A DNA stretch of 64,000 bases from Minisyncoccota bacterium. Lineage in GTDB: Bacteria; Patescibacteriota; Minisyncoccia; Phycocordibacterales; Phycocordibacteraceae. Location: the NCBI GenBank assembly GCA_018062765.1, contig JAGORR010000001.1:78638-142637 (forward strand), written 5' to 3'. The position numbers were made by a program, and so were the translations under genes. Positions 6,642-30,556 of this stretch are shown here, piece after piece. A model generated the notes under the pieces. It saw nothing but the letters and a program-made list of their open reading frames with translations, did no database searches and had not been told where the DNA came from. The first letter of the stretch is position 1; each line of letters begins with the position of its first letter.

Positions 6642-8933
6642 CTATAGTCCTGCAAAATCTTTCGGAAGCCCGAACAGACCGCGATCGAAATCATTACTCG
6701 TAAGATAATTATTGATACCTTCTATTTGCTTGGCGGAAAGTACGCCCGCAGCCTTACCTCGTCGAAGTTCAGCGATAACTTCCGCAGGGTCTGAGAACTT
6801 ACCCTCCGCCATACCTCGTTGCAAGTCGACTTGCGTGAAAGAATGCACGACAGCAGGTCGGGTATAGTCTTTAGCGCTTAGTTTGACCTTTGCCTTAGGC
6901 CCAAGACCGCTCGCCTGAGTCCTGATATTCACCTGTGATGCGGCTGATCCGTCGTCTTTCTCTATTAAGACGCGTAATTTACCAAAGTCCGATGAGTCCT
7001 TAACTGCGCGGCGTTGGTCATTGGTCAAGGCCTCACTCTTTTCAAGTGCCTCCAACTGTTCGTCGGAGAATTGGCCAGCAGCAAGCGCGTCTTCGAATGT
7101 CGCCGCGTTAAGCTTCGCAAACTCTGCCATATCCTTTGATGACCAGCGTTGTACCTCCTTCTTATCGTTTGTACCAATGGCCGCCACGAGTTTTTGGAAT
7201 CGCCCGCCTGCAACTTCGTCCTTAACGCTCTGATCGACCTTGTCGGTCTTCTGAATGTCGATGAACCGTTCAGTGCTGAGGTATTTCGCCGCCTCCTGTT
7301 TATCTGCATTTTTGAGTCTTTTGACGTACTCGAACGTGTCTCCCTGGTTCAGGCTCTGCAGGGTCTTCGAATACTCTTTCTCGGCTAGCATCCGCTTTGC
7401 ATCATCAGGCGCATCTTTTATGCTCTTAAGCTGCGTGCCAAGAGTGCTGAACGTGTGATCGCGATGAACTTCATGCGCGCGATGGTCACGCGCATGTTTC
7501 TCGTCATCCAGAGAAACACCAGCTACTTTTATTTTCTCGCGCTTATCGAGCGCGGATTGGATATTGGCGTCCGTCGTCGCAAGTATCTTGCTTCCTCTAA
7601 ACGCGGCGCCTATGCCAAGGCCATTATATGCCTTATCTGCCGCCCACATTCCAGCCTTCGCGCCATACCTAAGCCCCGTATTCCCTATCGCACGAGAAGG
7701 TTTTGATATTGGAGAGAGCGCTGCGCCGGTAAGACGTCGGCTCATGCCGATGGAGAAGCTCGCGCCGACCGCACCCATCTGTTTGGCGACAATGATGGAC
7801 GCCATAAGCATTCCCATGGAGATAACGAAGCCGAGTATCATTCGGGTCGTATTGGCCCAACCGGTGCCGCTGACGAGCGCGCTGAAATCGCGACTCTGTC
7901 CGATGATGAGCTGCGGCGAGGTCATCAGCGTCACACTGATGAGGAGGAACAGGAGGACAATAGGAGCAGTCGCGCTTTGGGCGATGAGCATGTGCCACCA
8001 CTGCTTCGCGCGCCCCTCTAGGGATGGTATGACCAGTCCAACGAAGCCGAGAGGGGACAGGATCATGAGGAATATGAGTACGAGGAAGCGCGCGATGAGC
8101 ATAAACGCGAGCGCAAGCATTACGAACGTAGCGACGATGAACAGGAGCGAGCCTAGTATGAGCGCAGCGAACCAGTTGTTCTCCAGCACCGTATTCTTAA
8201 GCTGCCCCGTCTGAAGCGTAGTTGCATCATAGAAATTCTGAAGTCCGACCATCTCCATAATGGCGTTCGAGACGCCCTCATTAGATGGCGACCAGCTTTC
8301 CCCCGGATCCGCGCCGAGCGCTTGCCTGCCCTCTCCGGGCTTCACCATGACGGAGTAGAACTGATAGGCGAACACGTTGCCAACGTCGATGATGGCGCGT
8401 GCAGCGAAGAGGCTGAAATTCACGGTAACGGCGACCAGGATGAGCTTCACGAGCATCTTCTTCGCGTTGTAACTCTGTACGTCGAGTATCGTCGCGACGC
8501 CGATAGCGACGAATCCGAATATGAGCGCAATGTTACCAAGATCGCGTAGCACCCTCCATGCATCGAGTATGCCGGGCATGCTATTCACGAAATCCCCCAT
8601 CTTAACGACTGTGTAGTAGACGGACGCGTTAAGCATCACGCCGGCGACTCCGGCGAGGTACGCGAACAGGGATAGCATCTTATACCCTATGGGTCCGTAG
8701 ATATCGTCTCCGGTCGTATGACTTCCAAAATTAGCGTTCGCGTCAGGGGTCCCTGCTTGCGGGGCAGCAGGAGGAGGACGATCCGGAAGCGTCAGATCAG
8801 GGGGCGAGTCCGGGGTCACTTCAGGAGGTGGAGGTGTCTGGGCAAATGCGAGACTAGGAAGCAGGAGCGAAAGCGAAAGCAGCAGGATGATACCTGCAGC
8901 CAGCCATGTCCTACCTGATACTCGGGAAGCCAT
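6642..8933 (-). CDS. Polytopic membrane protein, VirB6/TrbL/PrgH-like by topology and position.
   Basis: Signal peptide, at least 6 TM helices in the N-terminal 400 aa, and a large hydrophilic C-terminal domain. It lies upstream of the PrgI-like and VirB4 genes. Confidence 0.45.
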   Translation of the reverse strand: MASRVSGRTWLAAGIILLLSLSLLLPSLAFAQTPPPPEVTPDSPPDLTLPDRPPPAAPQAGTPDANANFGSHTTGDDIYGPIGYKMLSLFAYLAGVAGVMLNASVYYTVVKMGDFVNSMPGILDAWRVLRDLGNIALIFGFVAIGVATILDVQSYNAKKMLVKLILVAVTVNFSLFAARAIIDVGNVFAYQFYSVMVKPGEGRQALGADPGESWSPSNEGVSNAIMEMVGLQNFYDATTLQTGQLKNTVLENNWFAALILGSLLFIVATFVMLALAFMLIARFLVLIFLMILSPLGFVGLVIPSLEGRAKQWWHMLIAQSATAPIVLLFLLISVTLMTSPQLIIGQSRDFSALVSGTGWANTTRMILGFVISMGMLMASIIVAKQMGAVGASFSIGMSRRLTGAALSPISKPSRAIGNTGLRYGAKAGMWAADKAYNGLGIGAAFRGSKILATTDANIQSALDKREKIKVAGVSLDDEKHARDHRAHEVHRDHTFSTLGTQLKSIKDAPDDAKRMLAEKEYSKTLQSLNQGDTFEYVKRLKNADKQEAAKYLSTERFIDIQKTDKVDQSVKDEVAGGRFQKLVAAIGTNDKKEVQRWSSKDMAEFAKLNAATFEDALAAGQFSDEQLEALEKSEALTNDQRRAVKDSSDFGKLRVLIEKDDGSAASQVNIRTQASGLGPKAKVKLSAKDYTRPAVVHSFTQVDLQRGMAEGKFSDPAEVIAELRRGKAAGVLSAKQIEGINNYLTSNDFDRGLFGLPKDFAGL

Positions 8934-8938
8934 ATCGG

Positions 8939-10390
8939 TTAGCTTGTCGGGGTGCAGCGCAGGGAGGAGGTGCGCAGTTCCATATATAAGGAGGCTGGCG
9001 TGCCCTCTTCAGCTGCAAGTACCCCTGCTTCAGCAACCTCTGTGACAGAAGGGGTCGCAGGATTTGTCATGAGTGCTTGGAAGTCCTGGGCGACCGTTGC
9101 GACAGCGGTGGGATTCGCGCTCGTACGTGCCTCTAGGATTTCTGTGGTGATTGCCTGTAGCGCAGCGAGCGAGACGCCGACGCGCGCGAGTGCTGCATCC
9201 GCACGTGCTTTTGCGTCCGTTGCGCGCGCCTTCTCCTCATCCGTAGATTCATCGCAAGTAAGCGTTGACGATGCTACCGCCTCTATTTTCTGCCAATCCG
9301 TCTGATACGAAGCAAGGAGGGTTACTTGTCCCTGGATACCGCTTACAAGAAGCTCGTCGACAGATCCCCCGATAGGCGTTGTGGGAGGGGTGACCGGTGT
9401 CGGCGTCCCCGGTCTGTCTATATATCCTGAGCCGCCAGAGGATCGTGAGCCAATAGAAGAAAGTCCCTGAAGCGCCTGGCTTACAAGTTGGCTAACGAGC
9501 GCGTTCACGATCTCGTTTATCTCGTCAGCGACCTGGAGGCGCTGCTGCCCACCTGCCAAGGTCTCATTGAGCTGTTTTTCGATGACGGAACCTGGCGTCT
9601 CGATGGGGGCGTCGGCGCAGAATTCTTCCCCACCCAGATTGACCGCCGGCACAGGCGCGTTAATGCGGCCATCAGCGCCTGTTGTTGTCTGTCGGTCCCT
9701 GCACTCGCCGCGCCAAGACAGAAATCCGTTACCCCATCCGAGCTCCGTTATCCGCTTGTTAAGAGACGCTTCGATGCGGCGATTGAGCTCTTCTTTGGCA
9801 TTTAGATATGCGCCATGTGGGTTGTTTGCGCGATCTCCCGTGAGTGCGAACCACCCGTCCCAGCCGCCTTCGCTAAACCGACCGCGAGTGAACTCAAGAT
9901 CGTTCTCCACAGTGTCGCGAAGGGTGTACAGCTGCTCACGAAGGAACGCGTCGCCATTAGTCGAAAGGTAGTATCCGTACGCAACCGCCTCGACGGTACC
10001 CGAGAGCGGCGTGTCCATCATCTGATCGGCGAGCTGCCCGATGAATTCTGCGGCTACCGCGTCAGCGACCCCGCGCAGGTTCTGATTAAGGTCCTGGACG
10101 AAAGCCGGAGAGCCCTCGAAACCAGAGTTTATCCAATTGACGACGCTCCGCGACATCGACTCAAGGACGGTGTTCGCAAGCTGCCAAGCGACGCCGTCGA
10201 GGACCTGGTCGATATTGAGTTCTGCAGCATTTGTACCGAGAATGGCGTTTGTCGTTGCAAGGACTGCTTTATCGAGAACGAGCTGAACACCAAATTGTGC
10301 TTCAGCGCGTTGCGGTATTGCAAAGAGCGGCAGGATGAGCGCCAGCGTGAGCGCGGATGCGGTAGAACGATACAGGAGTGTACGCATCAT
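8939..10390 (-). CDS. Secreted hypothetical protein (T4SS-like cluster).
   Basis: Signal peptide ending in the AEAQF motif. A 483-aa ORF that overlaps its upstream neighbour by 4 nt. Confidence 0.5.
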   Translation of the reverse strand: MMRTLLYRSTASALTLALILPLFAIPQRAEAQFGVQLVLDKAVLATTNAILGTNAAELNIDQVLDGVAWQLANTVLESMSRSVVNWINSGFEGSPAFVQDLNQNLRGVADAVAAEFIGQLADQMMDTPLSGTVEAVAYGYYLSTNGDAFLREQLYTLRDTVENDLEFTRGRFSEGGWDGWFALTGDRANNPHGAYLNAKEELNRRIEASLNKRITELGWGNGFLSWRGECRDRQTTTGADGRINAPVPAVNLGGEEFCADAPIETPGSVIEKQLNETLAGGQQRLQVADEINEIVNALVSQLVSQALQGLSSIGSRSSGGSGYIDRPGTPTPVTPPTTPIGGSVDELLVSGIQGQVTLLASYQTDWQKIEAVASSTLTCDESTDEEKARATDAKARADAALARVGVSLAALQAITTEILEARTSANPTAVATVAQDFQALMTNPATPSVTEVAEAGVLAAEEGTPASLYMELRTSSLRCTPTS

Positions 10391-11364
10391 AGGCTGGTTG
10401 CAGAAAGGAGTGCGTAGAACCCGGCGCCGGCACCCGTTCGCGCAGCACCCGTTGCGTCGTACGCTTTCTTCACGGCTTTGAAGCCATCGATCATGCTGCG
10501 CGCATCCTTCTCATAATTTCCAAACCCAATCATCGCGCGCACAGGATCATCAGTGAGTGAAGCCATGTCCCCAATCGTCGCTCCGAGCCGTGCGATTGCG
10601 TTCGTAAGTGACTGATGTGCGCTCGTAAGTGCTATTGGCGCAGCGACCCCTCGGAGGCCTTCTGCTATCGCAACGTAATGGTCTCCTATCCGCTTTACCT
10701 GTGCGAGCGCATTCGTATCGCTCTTGAGCACTGCGTCGCTGAAATACGTAAGCTCGCTTTCCGGGAGCGAGAGCGCGTTCTTGGCAAATGCCTGCTCAGC
10801 CCCTGCAAGGTATGAGCTAGGGGTCGCTCCCTCGCTCGCTACGAAGTCGGCAACGACGTATGCGTCATCACGCGTCGCTTCGCGGCGGATTTCGTCAACC
10901 GCGCTTACGACGAACGAGCGCAGTGCCTCAGCGGTGAGTTTCTCCCCTCCCCCGGTAGTGACGTACGTCTCGAAGAACGTGAGCGCGAATTTCTCGGTGA
11001 GGGAACCTGGTGCCGGAGTTACCCCTGGCATGCTTGCGATGATGTCGCTTCCTATAGTGCCTTCGGGCGCCTCAATCGTGGGGCGCACGAGGCCCTGGGC
11101 AAGCGCCTCGCTATCCTTGATGTCGCTCCGTACCGAAGTAGCGTCCTCCGGGTCCATCCCATACAGGAGCTCCTGCCAGTCTGGAACGCCATCGGCATCC
11201 GTATCCTTCGCGGCGTATTCTTTAAGCACCTCCTCGGTCTCCTCTGCAGATAGCGTTGGCGTTGGTGGAGCGCCGTTTTGTATGTAGTAGGCGCCTCCGA
11301 TGAGCACAATCGCGATGAGCGATGCTCCTCCTACTATCCAGTGCGTTCGTGTGACAGCAATCAC
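10387..11364 (-). CDS. Membrane-anchored protein with an EF-hand-like Ca-binding loop. First gene of the T4SS-like operon.
   Basis: N-terminal TM segment (IVGGASLIAIVLIGGAYYI) and a DTDADGVPDWQE loop. Confidence 0.5.
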   Translation of the reverse strand: MIAVTRTHWIVGGASLIAIVLIGGAYYIQNGAPPTPTLSAEETEEVLKEYAAKDTDADGVPDWQELLYGMDPEDATSVRSDIKDSEALAQGLVRPTIEAPEGTIGSDIIASMPGVTPAPGSLTEKFALTFFETYVTTGGGEKLTAEALRSFVVSAVDEIRREATRDDAYVVADFVASEGATPSSYLAGAEQAFAKNALSLPESELTYFSDAVLKSDTNALAQVKRIGDHYVAIAEGLRGVAAPIALTSAHQSLTNAIARLGATIGDMASLTDDPVRAMIGFGNYEKDARSMIDGFKAVKKAYDATGAARTGAGAGFYALLSATSL

Positions 11365-20652: not shown

Positions 20653-20919
20653 TTACTTCTTCAACCCGAGCTTTTTGACAATCGCGTTGTAGCGACGCTT
20701 GTCGTTTGCCTCAAGGTAGCGAAGATGCGAGCGACGATCAGCAACCATCTGAAGAAGTCCGCGACGCGAGTGTACGTCCTTATTGTTCTTCTTCAAGTGC
20801 TTCGTGAGGTCCTCGATACGACGCGTCAAAATAGCTACCTGTACGTCAGGTGAGCCTGTATCGCCTTCGTGCCGGGCGGCATTCTTCATGACTGCCGCCT
20901 TTTTCTTCGTAGTAAGCAT
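20653..20919 (-). CDS. rpsO: 30S ribosomal protein S15.
   Basis: GDTGSPDVQVAILTRRIEDLTKHLK...HSRRGLLQMV. Start trimmed to MLTTKKK. Confidence 0.9.
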   Translation of the reverse strand: MLTTKKKAAVMKNAARHEGDTGSPDVQVAILTRRIEDLTKHLKKNNKDVHSRRGLLQMVADRRSHLRYLEANDKRRYNAIVKKLGLKK

Positions 20920-21138
20920 GTGAACGTACCCTACCACATATTGACTATTCGCGCAAGGGTTATCTGGTGCGGAGTCGAGTCAAAACCGCGAACTGCTTTG
21001 TTGGGGAGGCCTCCCTGTTTTCTCCATCGTATGTATATACGACTACGAAAACCTCAGCTTCCCGCCGTGCATTTCATCGATGCTGAGCTCGCTCCGGTAA
21101 TTACAATATTTTCCGACGCTTGGTGGTACAATTTTTTT

Positions 21139-22035
21139 ATGGACGCACAGACGATGAAGCGGCAATTCCTCGAATATATCGAAATCGAGCGCGGCCGTTC
21201 GGTGAAGACGGTTGAGAACTACGACCGCTACCTCACTCGGTACCTGACGCAGATGAAGGTAGGCCAGGTAGGAGAGATTACGGAGGAAAGTATTCGCGAG
21301 TTCCGTATGTGGCTTAACCGCCAGCCCGGGACCGGCAAGGATTCGATGAAACGCCGCACGCAGAACTACTACCTTATTGCGCTCCGCGCCTTCCTGAAGT
21401 TCCTCCGCAAGCGCGGGGTCGAAAGCTCTTCCCCGGAACGTATCGAGCTTGCAAAGCTCCCCGAACGTCATCTGGACCTCATTACCTCAGCCGAGCTCGA
21501 TAGGCTCATGAAGGCAGCCGATGGCGACTCGGAGCGCTCGCTTCGTGATAAGGCCATCCTCGAGATGCTTTTCTCTACGGGTCTTCGCGTTTCAGAGCTG
21601 TGCGCACTCGATTCCGACCTCGACCTTACCCGGGACGAGCTCTCCGTGCGCGGCAAGGGAGACAAGGTACGCGTGGTATTCCTCTCCGAAGCTGCTAAAG
21701 ACGCCGTGAAGGCGTATCTAAAGGCTCGCAAGGACATGGGCGAGGCGCTTTTCGTGAATATCGCGAAGGGTCGTGAGCGGGGCGAGCGTCTCACTCCCCG
21801 TTCTATAGAGCGCACTATGAAAACGTATGCCGCGAAGGCGGGCATCACCAAGAAGGTCACTCCCCACGTGCTCCGACACTCGTTCGCGACCGATTTACTC
21901 TCGAATGGCGCTGATATTCGTTCTGTGCAGCAGCTTTTGGGGCATGCCTCTATCAATACGACGCAGATCTATACCCACGTCACCGACTCTCATCTGCGTG
22001 AGGTCCACAAAAAGTTCCACGGGCGTACGCGCTAG
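21139..22035 (+). CDS. xerC: Tyrosine recombinase XerC/XerD-like.
   Basis: Catalytic motifs R...HVLRHSFAT...LLGH...Y (IYTHV). The ORF-track start at 20869 is an upstream extension. Confidence 0.85.
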   Translation: MDAQTMKRQFLEYIEIERGRSVKTVENYDRYLTRYLTQMKVGQVGEITEESIREFRMWLNRQPGTGKDSMKRRTQNYYLIALRAFLKFLRKRGVESSSPERIELAKLPERHLDLITSAELDRLMKAADGDSERSLRDKAILEMLFSTGLRVSELCALDSDLDLTRDELSVRGKGDKVRVVFLSEAAKDAVKAYLKARKDMGEALFVNIAKGRERGERLTPRSIERTMKTYAAKAGITKKVTPHVLRHSFATDLLSNGADIRSVQQLLGHASINTTQIYTHVTDSHLREVHKKFHGRTR

Positions 22036-24733: not shown

Positions 24734-25462
24734 AACAATATTCTACGGCATGACCTAGCGCGCTTCCTAAATGAATTATATGATTGTGTGTATAGAACTA
24801 TGAAAGAGAAAGTTCAGCATAAGAAATACGCGACTGATTTGCGACTAGCAGGGAGCACCTATTCGGAGATACTCGCGCAAGTCCCTGTTTCGCGTGGCAC
24901 ATTATCAGCGTGGCTTAGTGATGTTCCTCTACCGGAGAACGTGGTAAAGCACCTCTCCGCCAATCGGCGAGCGAGGGTCAGTCAGGCAAGAAGAAGGGAA
25001 GCGACGGTCCGGAAAGCGGCAGCGATAGTTCGCCGCGGATTCGCTGAAAAAGGTGCAAAAAAGGAATTCGAAAGACACTCGAAGGAACCCTTTTTCCTGG
25101 CCGGTCTCGGTCTTTATCTTGGTGGCGGGACCTTTGGGAAGGCATCCTTCTCGTACATGTCCGGGGAGGAGCGCCAGATAGCGCTAATGGTCCGCTGGGC
25201 TAAGGAATACCTTGCCCACGAGAGTCGTATAGCGCTCCGACTCTATCTGCCGCCCTCCATGGACCTCGGATCTGCCCGTGTGCACTGGTCCAAGGCCACC
25301 GGGCTCCCTGCAGCAGCCTTCAAGAAGGCGGTGATGACGAAGGAAAGGGCCAGAAAACCTAGTAATTACGCGGGTATTGCCCGATTGGAGCTTACGGGTG
25401 GCAGGGCAGCGCTTCGTGTGCGCGTGTGGCTGGATATGCTTGTTGTGCGCTATGCGGAATAA
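24728..25462 (+). CDS. Hypothetical protein with an N-terminal HTH-like motif.
   Basis: STYSEILAQVPVSRGTLSAWL resembles a sigma-70-region-4/terminase-type HTH. It ends 18 nt before tRNA-Arg. The true start may be an internal ATG. Confidence 0.4.
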   Translation: MHNNILRHDLARFLNELYDCVYRTMKEKVQHKKYATDLRLAGSTYSEILAQVPVSRGTLSAWLSDVPLPENVVKHLSANRRARVSQARRREATVRKAAAIVRRGFAEKGAKKEFERHSKEPFFLAGLGLYLGGGTFGKASFSYMSGEERQIALMVRWAKEYLAHESRIALRLYLPPSMDLGSARVHWSKATGLPAAAFKKAVMTKERARKPSNYAGIARLELTGGRAALRVRVWLDMLVVRYAE

Positions 25463-25480
25463 AGCTAGTGTTTACCTCAG

Positions 25481-25552
25481 GCTCCGATAGTGAAATGGAT
25501 ATCACATCAGTCTTCGGAACTGACGTTCCAGGTTCGAATCCTGGTCGGAGCA
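25481..25552 (+). tRNA. tRNA-Arg (anticodon TCG), no encoded CCA.
   Basis: Cloverleaf read manually: acceptor GCTCCGA/TCGGAGC, anticodon stem TCAGT/ACTGA, loop CTTCGGA, T-arm CCAGG TTCGAAT CCTGG. Confidence 0.85.
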
Positions 25553-25726
25553 CAGAAAGCAGCAAACCCGAGCTTACGCTTGGGTTTGCTGCTTTCTGGC
25601 TCAAGGCCAGGATTCGAAAGACGGAGTCGGTATACAAGCGAGCGAAGCGAGGCTTGAGACGATGAAAGCTGCCGGGGGTCGCTTTCATGGGTCGCGGAAA
25701 TCCCGCGTAGAGGGATTATCCGTGAC

Positions 25727-25746
25727 CGAATCCTGGTCGGAGCACA
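25727..25746 (+). repeat. 20-nt direct repeat of the tRNA-Arg 3' end (CGAATCCTGGTCGGAGCACA). The first copy is 25535-25554.
   Basis: Exact 20/20 match. It is preceded by GTGAC and is not part of a foldable tRNA. Confidence 0.75.
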
Positions 25747-25792
25747 CTAAGAATTGAAGAAAAGGCATAGCTATGGGAATATAGAGCCCGTA

Positions 25793-25863
25793 GCGGCTAT
25801 GGTTTAGTGGTAGAACGCGTCCTTGCCAAGGACGAGTCGGGAGTTCGATTCTCCCTAGCCGCA
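25793..25863 (+). tRNA. tRNA-Gly (anticodon GCC), no encoded CCA.
   Basis: Acceptor GCGGCTA/TAGCCGC, anticodon stem CGTCC/GGACG, loop TTGCCAA, T-arm GGGAG TTCGATT CTCCC. Confidence 0.85.
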
Positions 25864-25970
25864 CTAAGAAAAGCGAAGCTTTGCGTGTACAGACGAGGGA
25901 GGATCGAAGGCCGGAGCGCGGCGGCGCGAGGCGAGGTCGCGGCCATTTTCAGAAGAAAATGAGCTGTGAC

Positions 25971-25989
25971 CGATTCTCCCTAGCCGCAC
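25971..25989 (+). repeat. 19-nt direct repeat of the tRNA-Gly 3' end (CGATTCTCCCTAGCCGCAC). The first copy is 25846-25864.
   Basis: Exact match, again preceded by GTGAC. Confidence 0.75.
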
Positions 25990-25996
25990 CAGAGCG

Positions 25997-26025
25997 AAAA
26001 GCGCCCGGAAGGGCGCTTTTCGTTT
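25997..26025 (+). terminator. Rho-independent terminator (GCGCCC ggaa GGGCGC followed by a T-run) closing the tRNA locus.
   Basis: Hairpin plus TTTTCGTTT. Confidence 0.55.
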
Positions 26026-26085
26026 ATAGACAATAGGGGATAACTACCTACCTCTCCCTTGAACGCATAATTTCTAGGCCATTTC

Positions 26086-26114
26086 TTGGTGTTGACTTCA
26101 TGAAATGGTATAAT
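26086..26114 (+). promoter_or_regulatory. Sigma-70-like promoter with an extended -10 (TTGGTG-17-TGgTATAAT). An alternative -35 TTGACT sits 11 nt upstream.
   Basis: TGGTATAAT at 26106-26114. There is no ORF with a plausible start downstream for about 600 nt. Confidence 0.45.
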
Positions 26115-26552
26115 CCTAGAGCCTCGCAAGGGGTGGCAGGTATGGTCAGGTATCGGGACGAAAGTCGTTGCGTAAGCACAGCTCTAGTGGTCGGTACTTG
26201 TAAGGTCGAAAGACCTCGAGTACCTGCCAGTGGAGCTGTTTTCGTGGGCCCGCGGAACCAGTTTGAGCCCTCCACGGGTTAGCGATGAACCTGCACCTCG
26301 AATTTCGCGGTGTCGCTGGTCGACAAGATACCAGCATCGTAATCTTGGTCAAAACATGACTAAGACGATTACGAGGAGCGCGAAGACAGGTCGCTTCGTA
26401 CCGGCAAGGCAGGCGATCACTCGCCCCGCTACGACGGTACGGGAGACAATCTTCGTCCCTCGCAAAAAGAAGTAAGCCCCCTAGCTAAACGCTAGAGAGC
26501 TTGCTTCGTAAGGAAGCAAAAGCGCTCACAGCAGGTGTGGGTGCTTTTGCTT

Positions 26553-26578
26553 AAGGACATGGTACCACAGGTGTCCTT
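26553..26578. repeat. Inverted repeat AAGGACA-N12-TGTCCTT (a TAAAGGACA-family motif).
   Basis: Read directly. Same core as the 22847-22921 and 28497-28509 copies. Confidence 0.55.
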
Positions 26579-26759
26579 TAGACCACCAACCACACCGATA
26601 GGCAGGGGATAATCATGTAATTTATCCCTAGAAAGCATAATCGATTGAATAAAATCAAAGGATCTCAGGAATATTATCGGCTTATGCAAGGCACATTTTA
26701 TCGCTGTCCACACCTGCATTGTACGTTCACGGAATAAGGTGTAGCGTTGAAGTAAAGAT

Positions 26760-27371
26760 ATGAAGCGGTACGCATTTATAGATGTCGAAAATACGGCCAC
26801 GACAGCCGAAGATATGCTTGGCTTTGTCGTTGATTGGTCAAAAGTGGCTGATTTCCTCAAGAATGTGAAAAGTTGTACAGAAGTGTTCTACTACACGGCT
26901 ATAGAGACTGGTGATGCCCAGAAGGCGGCAGAGTTCGAGGCGATCGATAAAACTGCCTGCTGCGTTGTTAGGGCGAAACAAAAGATGCTCTATAAGCGTA
27001 AGGACAAGTATCTTTCTTTCACGTGCTCAAAGTGCGGGGAACCCGGCAATAAAAGCATTGACATGGGGTACAACGTCAAAGGTAACTGCGATGTTGAATT
27101 AACGGTGGATGCTCTCGAGCATGGAGAGAAAGATAACGAATTTTACATATTCACGGGCGACGGTGATTTCGAGTACCTAGCTATAAAGCTTATGGAGCGG
27201 GGCGTTAAGGTCGTGTTTGTTTCTCACGCAAAAGTGATTCAGAGGGCTGGTCAGCCCTATGGACGGTATTCAAAAAAGCTTAGAGATCTTGTTGCTGCCA
27301 ACCCGACCCACCTCTCTTTCCAAGAACTAGATAATTGGAAGAAGAAATTTGAGCGCGTAATTGTGCCGTAA
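26760..27371 (+). CDS. NYN-domain protein with an inserted Cys4 zinc ribbon, in a lower-GC context.
   Basis: MKRYAFIDVEN N-terminus, TGDGDFEYLAIKL motif and CSKCG...C insert. AT-richer codon usage than the surrounding genes. Confidence 0.65.
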   Translation: MKRYAFIDVENTATTAEDMLGFVVDWSKVADFLKNVKSCTEVFYYTAIETGDAQKAAEFEAIDKTACCVVRAKQKMLYKRKDKYLSFTCSKCGEPGNKSIDMGYNVKGNCDVELTVDALEHGEKDNEFYIFTGDGDFEYLAIKLMERGVKVVFVSHAKVIQRAGQPYGRYSKKLRDLVAANPTHLSFQELDNWKKKFERVIVP

Positions 27372-27562
27372 ATACGCCGTATAAATACGAAAACGCCGCG
27401 AAGCGCGGCGCCTTCTAAGGACTCCCTCAGTATACTCAGGACCCATGAGGTGTCAATTAAGGGTCAAGGGGTCTTTCTAATAACCTGTTGATAGCTGATT
27501 TAAGAAGAATTTAAGATAGTTTCAAGTATAATTTTCACAAATGGATCAACCCGAGTTTCTTT

Positions 27563-28450
27563 CTATACTTTCGAGAGCAATACGGTTCCGAGGAGCGCAG
27601 AAAACCGCTGACTGTCGCTGTGTCGGTTGTTCCAATGGAACGAATACGCATCTAGATACCCCTGAAGGTGTCGCTTCGACACCACCTTATACGTCCCCCG
27701 AAGAGAGCGCTTCACGTGCGCCCAATACGCCTCAATAGTGTTTATGTAGATTGGGCCTCGCGCCCATTCTTTCTTTGAGTGATTCACCATGTATCGCTCG
27801 TAGCCTATAGCTACATTGTCTAGGGTCTTAGTAGCGTCAGTCATGAGCGCGGTGCCTTCCTCCTCAACGTTTTCCCGAAGAAACCGGCCGTGGGTATCTG
27901 CGCCTATGTCGGGTACGACCTTGGTGCGTACCTCGCCGTTTCGCTGTACCGCGCCTATAACCGGGGACTTAGCCCTAATGTTCCTGCTCTGGTGCATATT
28001 GTCCTTCCCGCCGTCACCCTTGCCGCCCATATAGGTGCTATCCACCTCGACAACCCCCGACAGCTTCTTGGGAGTCTGTTTCCCGAGGGATTCGCGGATC
28101 AGTTTCAGCATTCGCCACGCCGTCTTATAGGTCACTTCAAGCTGTCGCTCCATCTCCTTAGCTGAAATGCCGCTCTTGGCGTTAGAAAAGACCCACAGGG
28201 CATGGAACCAGAGGGAAAGGGGAGTATCTGACTTATGGAAGATCGTGCCTGCTGTAGGGGCTATCTGGAACCTACACTTGGAGCATTGATACTGTTTCCG
28301 GCCTGAAATGCGCCTGTAGGTACCACCACAGGAGCACTCCCGGCTGTGGAGGGAATCGAAAATGAAGTCCAGACAGACCGCGTCGGTCGGGAAATCACGT
28401 TTTAGGGAAGATAGGCCGTATTTACTCATTATTCTCACTCTATCGGACAT
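27563..28450 (-). mobile_element. IS1595-family (ISXO2-like) DDE transposase gene.
   Basis: N-terminal zinc ribbon (CSCGG...CSKC), HTH and a DDE domain with the typical IS1595 C-terminus. Lower GC. No convincing terminal inverted repeats were located. Confidence 0.75.
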
Positions 28451-28496
28451 GGATTATGTTGTCAAGGGATATCGGGGGATAACTAAGGGGACATGT

Positions 28497-28509
28497 GGAT
28501 AAAGGACAG
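28497..28509. repeat. GGATAAAGGACAG copy of the TAAAGGACA motif.
   Basis: Identical 13-mer to 22909-22921. It lies just outside the transposase start. Confidence 0.55.
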
Positions 28510-28973: not shown

Positions 28974-29074
28974 CAATGCTAGGATGGCCCATATAGGACG
29001 TTGGCCTATGTGTATGGGCGGTGAGCTAGGGTCATTATGTGCCGGAGTAGCTTGGGTGGGTTAAATCATTTGGT

Positions 29075-29148
29075 CGGGCCGTCGTATACCGGTAGTACGC
29101 TTGGTTTGGGACCAAGATGACCGGGTTCGATTCCCGGCGGCCCGACCA
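29075..29148 (+). tRNA. tRNA-Pro (anticodon TGG) with encoded CCA.
   Basis: Acceptor CGGGCCG/CGGCCCG, D-arm GTAT/GTAC, anticodon stem CTTGG/CCAAG, loop TTTGGGA, T-arm CCGGG TTCGATT CCCGG, then ACCA. Flanked by the inverted repeat 29061-29081 / 29138-29158. Confidence 0.85.
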
Positions 29149-29305
29149 AATGATTTAACGGCTCTCTGGGAGAGAGCCAAGGTCCGGAGGAAAGATGACC
29201 GGGACGACCCCTTACAGGGGCGGTATACCTTTCGGATATTTTGCATCGCAAGCTCGCAAATTATCTCGAAAGGTCTTGCGAACGCTCCAAGCATTCGCGT
29301 TCTCA

Positions 29306-29324
29306 CCCGGCGGCCCGACCAAAT
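29306..29324 (+). repeat. 19-nt direct repeat of the tRNA-Pro 3' end (CCCGGCGGCCCGACCAAAT). The first copy is 29133-29151.
   Basis: Exact match 173 nt downstream, followed by a T-run. Confidence 0.75.
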
Positions 29325-29383
29325 TTTTCGTGATGCGCACTGAATCGATTCTCCGGGGGAGAACCGTATGACTGGGTTAATGC

Positions 29384-30484: not shown

Positions 30485-30485
30485 G

Positions 30486-30556
30486 TGCGGGATAGGAGAA
30501 TCGAACTCCTGCTAGCAGTTTGGAAAACTGCAGTTCTACCATTAAACTAATCCCGC
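30486..30556 (-). tRNA. tRNA-Gly (anticodon TCC), no encoded CCA.
   Basis: The reverse complement folds with acceptor GCGGGAT/ATCCCGC, anticodon stem GCAGT/ACTGC, loop TTTCCAA and T-arm AGGAG TTCGATT CTCCT. Confidence 0.8.

Follow-up and report, generated by a model that had tools for sequence, protein, structure and literature searches.

We examined a 64,000-nt stretch of DNA (hereafter the window) from a Minisyncoccota bacterium (assembly GCA_018062765.1, contig JAGORR010000001.1, positions 78,638 to 142,637), in which the 3′-ends of transfer RNA (tRNA) genes are repeated a short distance downstream and the repeats enclose small structured inserts. ARAGORN and Rfam together call four tRNA genes in the window, and for three of these, tRNA-Arg, tRNA-Gly(GCC) and tRNA-Pro, the 3′-end is duplicated downstream. 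The genes, and the copies located by repeat search, are as follows:

25481–25552 (end 25552/3), plus strand: tRNA-Arg(TCG), called by ARAGORN and Rfam (tRNA, 68 bits); CCA not encoded
25535–25554, plus strand: tRNA-Arg 20-nt segment CGAATCCTGGTCGGAGCACA, first copy, inside the working tRNA-Arg
25727–25746, plus strand: CGAATCCTGGTCGGAGCACA, second copy, exact; forms the 3′ strand of helix P1 (described below) and then an acceptor-3′-strand tail
25793–25863 (end 25863/4), plus strand: tRNA-Gly(GCC), called by ARAGORN and Rfam
25846–25864, plus strand: tRNA-Gly 19-nt segment CGATTCTCCCTAGCCGCAC, first copy, inside tRNA-Gly
25971–25989, plus strand: CGATTCTCCCTAGCCGCAC, second copy, an exact repeat
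29075–29148, plus strand: tRNA-Pro(TGG), called by ARAGORN and Rfam; CCA encoded
29133–29151, plus strand: tRNA-Pro 19-nt 3′ segment, first copy, which includes the encoded CCA and 3 trailer bases
29306–29324, plus strand: tRNA-Pro 19-nt 3′ segment, second copy, 173 nt downstream of the first
30485–30556, minus strand: tRNA-Gly(TCC), called by ARAGORN and Rfam

The segment CGAATCCTGGTCGGAGCACA spans tRNA-Arg from C56 of the T-loop to the discriminator and 2 nt beyond. An initial annotation of the locus had reported the duplications at tRNA-Arg and tRNA-Gly, which we find to be exact over 20 and 19 nt, with start-to-start distances of 192 and 125 nt instead of the 191 and 126 nt given there. 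It was right that GTGAC stands directly 5′ of both second copies and that these are not part of a foldable tRNA; neither ARAGORN nor Rfam, even at E ≤ 5, recognises a cloverleaf in any second copy. The repeat search also yielded tRNA-Pro, a third case that lies 3 kb from the Arg-Gly pair and was absent from the initial annotation. The second tRNA-Gly copy is followed by CCA (GCA-CCA-GAG), while the working tRNA-Gly gene has none. The fourth gene, tRNA-Gly(TCC) on the minus strand, runs directly into a protease gene. The inserts in the window are 106–172 nt long and have no open reading frame (ORF).

The repeats did not arise by chance, since by our own arithmetic 64 kb should contain an exact 19-mer repeat at a spacing of up to 250 nt only about 6e-5 times, and since the Arg and Gly inserts share the motif GGTCGCGG-(23–24 nt hairpin)-YGTGACC, which in the form GGTCGCGG-N(10–40)-GTGACC has 2 matches in the window against 0.01 expected. 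Nor are they an assembly artefact, an explanation that the initial annotation had considered: the Arg and Gly inserts are identical in two independent Logan assemblies of the same organism (L003 and L004; related loci are denoted by L and a number throughout), and the tRNA-Pro insert is identical in L003, L004 stopping at the tRNA-Pro gene.

On comparative sequence grounds, the Arg and Gly inserts are two members of one predicted fold family, here termed type 1, a three-way junction of ~85–130 nt; aligning the inserts with each other, as the initial annotation had proposed, shows them to be related. The family was described from an alignment of 26 members (A1), folded with RNAalifold, and from a covariance model (R1), which matches two places in the window and no others:

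25606–25738, plus strand: type-1 element E1, R1 43 bits, E ~2e-11; with a homologue in L001
25896–25982, plus strand: type-1 element E2, R1 87 bits, E ~1e-25; placed by A1 and RNAalifold, near the family consensus

In the consensus, the closing helix P1 pairs the T-stem 5′ strand plus AUCG with CGAU plus the T-stem 3′ strand. The second tRNA copy is the 3′ strand of this helix, that is, the repeat belongs to the fold. Between P1 and P2 the joining segment is 'AAA' (J1/2), and between P2 and P3 it is 'GGG' (J2/3). P2 starts with GNC/GNC, continues with a GGAG/GA internal loop and ends in a variable hairpin. P3 consists of GGUCGCGG/CYGUGACC with a near-invariant G·U pair, beyond which lies a distal stem that covaries and is capped by an AGCA-type loop; it is the most conserved helix, has GTGAC as its 3′-end and stacks directly on P1 with no break between them. 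In E1 the P1 5′ strand is GCCAGGATTCG (25606–25616), P2 is long and holds a GGAG..CGGTATAC..GUC module, P3 runs from GGTCGCGG to CCGTGAC (25690–25726), and the start of the second tRNA-Arg copy provides the P1 3′ strand. In E2 the P1 5′ strand (25897–25906) is followed by the joining segment 'AAG', P2 (25910–25932), P3 (25935–25970, ending in GTGAC) and the P1 3′ strand from 25971.

The type-1 fold is conserved, covarying and strand-specific. Compensatory changes are seen in A1 at 14 of the 27 predicted pairs (one P2 pair is C-G in 17 members, A-U in 6 and G-C in 3), 28 positions in junctions and loops are invariant, and the G·U pair of P3 is present in 26 of 26 sequences. A larger set of 62 distinct members (A2) was compared with 500 shuffles and with slid partners; 93% of its pair cells are paired, against 73% in the shuffles and 34–48% with slid partners, double changes occur in 24 of the 27 pairs, and five measures were reached by none of the 500 shuffles. 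The near-invariant G·U pair is found in 60 of 61 distinct sequences, a second pair is G·U in 32 and G-C in 23, and, counted by us over the A1 pair table, G·U is ~10 times commoner than A·C. As these G·U pairs would be A·C on the opposite strand, only the tRNA-sense strand folds. Searching the window and related loci with Rfam 15 gave only tRNA and transfer-messenger RNA (tmRNA) at the gathering score and nothing credible on the inserts at E ≤ 5. The best sub-threshold matches were microRNA-precursor models on the hairpin at 25538–25614 (RF03675, 26.7 bits against a gathering score of 100); the tRNA-Pro insert scored 19 bits with Rfam tmRNA_permuted (gathering score 47), and the Rfam group I models did not match the inserts. 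We found no description of the type-1 element in Rfam 15 or in the literature by full-text searching.

Duplication of a tRNA from its T-loop to its 3′-end is the textbook mark of a tyrosine-integrase attachment site, and a tyrosine recombinase gene, XerC-like, lies 3.4 kb upstream (20869–22035). The initial annotation had offered remnants of excised elements as one explanation and pointed to the xerC-like recombinase within 4 kb. The gene is found at the same place beside rpsO/exoIII/cca in relatives, as expected of a syntenic housekeeping-type Xer. Moreover, a phmmer search of the ORFs of 44 element loci detected tyrosine recombinases in L001, L002 and L109 alone, where they are orthologues of the same syntenic Xer (plus one weak extra match in L002), and none at the 41 other element-bearing loci. 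In view of the Xer synteny and this survey, we reject the idea that a local integrase produced the repeats. The inserts belong to a single family that is conserved and covaries throughout the phylum, and three tiny 'remnants' within 4 kb, all with perfect repeats, would not be expected from decay. The reading as ordinary attL/attR scars of decayed prophages or islands is already contradicted by the family-level conservation, and we regard it as very improbable.

Other mobile elements fare no better as a cause. An IS1595-family transposase gene with a helix-turn-helix domain (27563–28450, minus strand) and an NYN-domain gene (26760–27371) lie between tRNA-Gly and a UPF0102 gene (region ~26040–28500). 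At this position the syntenic relative L002 has neither gene, which points to an insertion in the lineage of the window; as L002 still has the elements, we reject the transposase as their source. A search of IMG/VR with the core pattern gave two matches, plainly random and without core context, and blastn gave no match among phages and one chance 33-nt match inside a ggt gene among plasmids. With no true match in these collections, we reject a phage or plasmid origin as well.

The window and 44 other loci, mostly with Patescibacteria labels, together hold 64 type-1 members found by R1, and an independent sample adds 16. In a motif scan of one genome per species, ~45 of the matches listed are true and the rest are chance matches in high-GC genomes; among the matches listed, nearly all true ones are labelled Saccharibacteria, Paceibacteria/Paceibacterota, Parcubacteria, Taylor-, Harrison- or Nomurabacteria, and a few are labelled otherwise or simply 'bacterium'. 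The hosts are tRNAs of 15 amino-acid classes (Arg, Gly, Pro, Ser, Leu, Asp, Val, Tyr, Glu, Met, Lys, Ala, Cys, His and Thr), and elements also occur behind tmRNA (L107, L047). The distance from the tRNA to the element is 5–150 nt, the interrupted tRNA copy stands on the downstream side of the intact one in every case, never upstream, and in tight tRNA clusters the element follows the last gene. The independent sample, used to obtain an unbiased estimate, consisted of 100 metagenome contigs picked for another motif and holds 58 tRNA/tmRNA genes, 11 of which (19%) have a type-1 element downstream; 12 of the 16 type-1 matches in it lie at most 120 nt downstream of a tRNA. Among ~50 tRNA–element pairs, 30 have an exact match to the tRNA that begins at C56 and covers the 15–29 nt following GTGAC, 9 have a longest exact match of 8–14 nt, usually the T-loop/T-stem part, and in ~11 the second copy is largely lost while the core is intact.

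The elements can also be stacked. In L107 (1163–1871, minus strand) a tmRNA gene is followed by two different type-1 elements in tandem. L036 (1783–2200, minus strand) has the same tandem layout with a tmRNA-type 3′-end, and no tmRNA gene was detected there; each of its elements has an acceptor-like helix of 8–11 bp complementary to the tmRNA-type 3′-end, CCA included. In L038 (5080–8000, from the Paceibacterota metagenome-assembled genome contig JBAZUA010000005.1), four successive units stand behind tRNA-Ala, each made up of a partial tRNA-Ala 3′-end, a terminator, a sigma-70-like promoter and small ORFs (membrane proteins and a Cys-rich 110-aa protein), with a type-1 core just before the last unit. 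With no recombinase in view, the arrangement resembles an array of cassettes at a tRNA gene, which may extend further, since the locus stops at 8000.

Syntenic relatives of the window were reached via a neighbouring 244-aa protein (57–59% identity), and homologous Arg, Gly and Pro elements are common to the window and the syntenic relatives L001, L002 and L109. The Saccharibacteria genome L022 also has elements at tRNA-Gly(GCC) and tRNA-Pro. Even where the neighbouring protein has only 57% identity between species, the element has stayed at the same tRNAs. Over the loci compared, the mean identity of elements is 0.54 within one locus and 0.48 between different loci, and two exact tandem duplications of elements were seen (L019, L102). 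Similarity within a genome is thus no higher than between genomes, which rules out a recent intragenomic burst. Several positions in the acceptor and T-stems of tRNA-Arg are not the same in the window as in L001, and in either genome the second copy agrees with the local gene over 20 nt. The tRNA-Gly second copy likewise tracks its own gene in the window, L001, L109 and L022, and in L002 its sole difference from the gene is a 1-nt deletion. This tracking is not what neutral decay would leave, so that either the identity is selected or the copies are regularly homogenised. The left end of the direct repeats is fixed in the T-loop and the right end varies, the repeat measuring 8 to ~100 nt; identity often continues a few nt past the tRNA end, and in L038 it reaches ~100 nt with terminator and promoter included. 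A CCA in the second copy that is missing from the gene is found at the window tRNA-Gly, at tRNA-Pro of L002 and in L068, while other pairs show the reverse or neither; in the absence of a consistent polarity in the tails inspected, we dropped the idea that this CCA betrays a cDNA origin from mature tRNA.

The third insert of the window, behind tRNA-Pro, is of another kind. R1 does not match it, for which reason a separate family, type 2, was set up:

29192–29203, plus strand: AAGATGACCGGG, 12-nt copy of the tRNA-Pro variable loop and T-stem 5′ strand (repeat search, folding); 5′ side of the stub that encloses the insert
29208–29307, plus strand: type-2 element, made up of CCCC-TTACA-GGGG, CGGTATACC, a long hairpin, GGTCTTGC, a hairpin and TCTCACC

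The type-2 consensus at the RNA level is NNCC-UUACA-GGNN, C-R-GUAYACC, a long hairpin, GGUCUUGC, a hairpin and CUCACC, and the corresponding DNA motif is NNCC-TTACA-GGNN C-RGTAYACC [hairpin] AAGGTCTTGC [hairpin] CTCACC. A homologue in L048 (4160–4270) is not beside a tRNA, and the family is found in at least 120 metagenome contigs (L127–L246; groundwater and others) with at least 125 motifs, 6 of which, among the 125 matches listed, are near a tRNA; there is no common neighbouring protein, and tandem arrays occur in L148 and L180. Pairing is strand-specific here as well (G·U 161 against A·C 35), and Rfam has no match for type 2. It is a different family from type 1 and equally widespread. The tRNA-Pro site that holds type 2 in the window holds type 1 in L002, which indicates that the tRNA stub can host different inserts. 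Three contigs (L188 ~2804–2949, L181 ~305–460 and L205 ~10250–10560) share one junction, ..GT(G/T)AC-TCC-GCAAGACCTT.., at which a reversed type-2 piece adjoins a type-1 core, and by our own reading a GGAG-N-RGUAYAC-helix-GUC..GC-GAR module is common to type-1 members with a long P2 (E1, L001, L019) and to type 2. The two families look modular and related.

What encloses the type-1 core is itself derived from the neighbouring tRNA on both sides, exactly on the 3′ side and at 75 of 95 positions on the 5′ side. The outer 5 bases of the P1 5′ strand are the tRNA's own T-stem 5′ strand at those 75 positions (79%), and among the differences 16 break the pair and 4 keep it, which makes the left flank a decaying tRNA copy rather than a freshly selected complement. 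The T-loop bases CGA flank the core on both sides. The layout is best described as an intact tRNA followed by what appears to be its 5′-truncated copy, in which T-stem, outer T-loop bases and acceptor 3′ strand are retained and the T-loop is replaced by a core of ~65–100 nt. A full acceptor-like helix is retained in L109-Arg and in L036; across the family the acceptor 5′ partner amounts to 5.5 bp against 5.0 bp in controls, and in view of this weak excess we dropped a complete minihelix as a general trait.

Such a layout could result from a selfish, T-loop-specific insertion, intron-like or like a miniature inverted-repeat transposable element (MITE), whose ~70-nt core entered the T-loop of a tandem or partial tRNA duplicate, leaving CGA on either side, after which the rest of the duplicate decayed and the fold was kept for a need of the insertion itself, for example self-processing. 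Both flanks of the core are indeed tRNA-derived, the mostly pair-breaking differences of the T-stem 5′ strand look like decay from the outside, minihelix-like remnants (acceptor 5′ strand or variable loop) persist in L109-Arg, L036 and the window tRNA-Pro insert, and type-2 elements are dispersed and nested with type 1 in L188, L181 and L205. However, the interrupted copy has the intact tRNA upstream of it in every case, such an origin would call for tandem duplication of tRNAs at dozens of loci of very small genomes, and neutral decay would not leave the acceptor part with its perfect, lineage-specific identity. Compared with a MITE, the core lacks inverted repeats at its ends (AAAGCC... and ...YGTGAC), the length of the duplicated segment is not fixed, and many near-identical copies within a genome are not seen, as the identities of same-locus pairs given above illustrate. 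We consider this origin doubtful.

The position of the repeats at tRNA and tmRNA genes, which are classic integration targets, raises a further alternative, namely that tRNA 3′ segment, hairpin, stub and core together are an integrative mini-cassette that has no integrase of its own. The cassette would form a circle, the fold would be its recombination site in cis, in the shape of folded top-strand DNA like integron attC or CTX-phage attP, and recombination would take place between C56 and the 3′-end of tRNA/tmRNA genes by means of a recombinase encoded elsewhere or of host recombination; the empty-site junction predicted at tRNA-Gly is GGTTCGATTCTCCCTAGCCGCACCAGAGCG. Repeats that start at one fixed T-loop position and end variably would follow from this, as would different elements in tandem with their own copy each (L107, L036), the four-unit array of L038 with a core just before its last copy, and the different occupants of the tRNA-Pro site. 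The terminator-like hairpin arrives with the first copy, as if re-equipping the tRNA gene, and integration, if reversible, would account for the lasting compatibility of both copies with the tRNA. On the other hand, the 44 loci contain no recombinase genes apart from the syntenic Xer orthologues, viral, phage and plasmid collections yielded no copy, the elements of one genome are old and have diverged, and distant relatives have elements at the same tRNAs. A correct own-tRNA 3′-end would have been required for at least 15 tRNA classes and tmRNA, where a switch of target would break an essential single-copy tRNA, and the 28 invariant junction and loop positions of A1 resemble an RNA tertiary core more than a recombinase site. 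Of the miniature integrative elements that the initial annotation had proposed, the tandem stacks, the variable repeat length and the cassette array are in keeping with the idea, while the old, divergent copies and the lack of a linked recombinase speak against it. We hold the mini-cassette to be possible but rather unlikely.

We favor a different explanation, to which we give an even chance, namely that the element is an RNA in the tRNA trailer whose tRNA-derived stub gives it a tRNA-like 3′-end for maturation and stability, and that the flanking repeats drive duplication, loss and homogenisation. That the product would be an RNA is suggested by the strand-specific pairing, and the strand-specific covariation together with the many invariant unpaired bases would fit an RNA. 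The element would be transcribed within the tRNA/tmRNA trailer, either directly or via read-through of the hairpin after the tRNA. The tRNA-type 3′-end of the stub could then be matured by RNase Z or RNase P and by the CCA-adding enzyme, and processing might free a stable RNA of ~90–130 nt whose conserved junction would bind a partner. The flanking direct repeats would allow tandem duplication or loss by recombination and keep both copies alike. The new class of tRNA-trailing structured RNA that was among the suggestions of the initial annotation is thus the one we prefer, given a conserved, covarying and strand-specific fold that extends across Patescibacteria and is absent from Rfam 15.

The signals around the elements bear on how such transcription could proceed. 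Two hairpins in the Arg-Gly region occupy the positions where terminators might be looked for:

25555–25596, plus strand: strong hairpin directly after tRNA-Arg ('T1' position; folding, inverted repeat), with a weak T-run
25995–26022, plus strand: perfect 12-bp hairpin followed by TTT ('T2') after the second tRNA-Gly copy (inverted repeat, sequence)

The T2 hairpin is likely the end of the Arg-Gly transcription unit. E2 follows tRNA-Gly with no terminator-like hairpin between them, the good hairpin coming after the second tRNA-Gly copy. A scan of 25300–26200 for consensus promoters and terminators found no promoter and no canonical terminator, and called neither T1 nor T2. Across the family, a hairpin with a T-run, like that of an intrinsic terminator, stands between tRNA and element in 28 of 61 cases and after the element in 22 of 61, against a background of 15%.

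Several observations weigh against a trailer RNA. Where the terminator-like hairpin and T-run separate the element from its tRNA, as in those 28 of 61, the space left behind the hairpin is too short for a promoter. Among members with an intact core, ~40% lack the acceptor part of the second copy or have it shortened, from which it follows that this part is not essential for the core, and the 5′ acceptor-like partner strand is sporadic, with the small excess over controls noted above. Folded single-stranded DNA would give the same pairing signal. The over-long repeats, the L107 and L036 stacks and the small-ORF array of L038 look more like a history of recombination, and a trailer RNA does not by itself account for how each tRNA gained its own stub.

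A more far-reaching idea, which we put forward as speculation and think improbable, is that the type-1 core works as an active device, made of RNA or of folded DNA, for recognising the universal T-loop/T-stem in any tRNA or tmRNA gene, where it would install itself with a duplicate of the 3′ half of the gene, without a protein of its own. It might then represent a Patescibacteria-specific class of structure-guided, self-propagating cassette or ribozyme, in which the invariant G·U pair four bp from the junction and the flanking CGA would mark the reaction site.

Among described systems, the nearest layout is that of the E. coli tyrT-tyrV genes (rtT/RttR RNA, tpr), where each trailer unit contains the final ~19 nt of the tRNA before it, from T-loop to CCA. 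We checked tyrV and find a 178-nt unit three times behind the gene, overlapping the tRNA-Tyr 3′-end and annotated as rttR/tpr. The rtT RNA is released from the tRNA transcript by tRNA-processing enzymes. The E. coli arrangement differs from type 1 in that it involves one locus in one lineage and tandem copies of one unit, without a conserved three-way junction, and in that the unit does not stand behind many tRNAs or tmRNA; R1 scores at most 6.4 bits on the tyrT-tyrV locus, that is, no homology.

Islands bounded by tyrosine-integrase attL/attR sites, and their integrase-less derivatives of the cis-mobilizable element type, resemble type 1 in a repeat that starts in the T-loop and reaches the 3′-end or passes it, in the same classes of target and in tandem accretion. 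Type 1, however, has no linked integrase other than the syntenic Xer, its inserts are ~100–190 nt and its copies ancient; one fold serves at least 15 tRNA classes and tmRNA, whereas an att family targets one or very few tRNA genes, and the type-1 repeat base-pairs with the insert, which att repeats do not. Integron attC and CTX-phage attP sites have a strand-specific conserved structure at cassette boundaries; type 1 shows strand-specific pairing, which would look alike in RNA and in single-stranded DNA, and L038 resembles a cassette array. Unlike attC, type 1 has no integron integrase near the elements and no GTTRRRY core site, its junction being GTGAC|CGA, and it is a three-way junction with many invariant unpaired bases.

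A tRNA-like acceptor/T-arm module joined to another RNA is also known from viral tRNA-like structures, the mascRNA/MALAT1 3′-end, YrlA and engineered tRNA scaffolds, and in these RNAs the module recruits tRNA enzymes and stabilises the RNA. The type-1 stub differs in that it copies the neighbouring tRNA, has its T-loop replaced and usually lacks the 5′ acceptor strand. Finally, mobile or non-canonical tRNA introns (Thermoproteales) and the group I introns of Patescibacteria are structured insertions in tRNA sequences as well, the latter in a lineage rich in RNA insertions. These introns interrupt the working tRNA and are spliced out, the group I introns in Patescibacteria tRNAs sitting in the anticodon loop at position 35/36 (PMC13011429), whereas type 1 leaves the working tRNA intact and sits in the truncated second copy.

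A few further features of the window may be recorded. The 5′ leader and the trailer of tRNA-Pro form an inverted repeat (29060–29084 with 29135–29159, 25 nt, 96%, the encoded CCA included), which lengthens the acceptor stem by ~11 bp, and the leader can equally pair with the second copy (29068–29084 with 29308–29324), as the repeat includes CCAAAT. The window (29340–29380) and L002 (12030–12075) both keep a small hairpin, with GAATCG ... CRTATGACYGGG as its frame, downstream of the second tRNA-Pro copy; the frame is like a strongly shortened version of that of type 1 (AATCG ... GTGAC), and the hairpin may be the decayed rest of an older element. Both tRNA-Gly genes of the window have A as discriminator (positions 25863 and 30486). 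Bacterial tRNA-Gly usually has U73, A73 being of the archaeal/eukaryotic type, and the A73 found here may reflect the type of glycyl-tRNA synthetase of this lineage.

In conclusion, we infer for the function and origin of type 1 that an RNA in the tRNA trailer, scaffolded by a tRNA stub, is the best reading, with the integrase-less cassette as its main rival. The element combines known kinds, tRNA-trailer RNAs and tRNA-end duplications, in an architecture and with a breadth that we did not find in Rfam 15 or in the literature searched. Its elements explain many of the 'partial tRNA' fragments in genomes of the candidate phyla radiation, and types 1 and 2 are two ready covariance-model targets for annotation and biochemistry. 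Patescibacteria have tiny genomes that shed dispensable DNA, yet about one fifth of the sampled tRNA genes, and tmRNA, carry this conserved fold of ~90 nt. If it acts as a recombination site, it would mean integrase-less loading of DNA at tRNA genes. If it is an RNA, it would be a widespread, phylum-specific class of non-coding RNA with a new architecture, a stub whose T-loop has become a three-way junction, and it would be tied to tRNA maturation or quality control.

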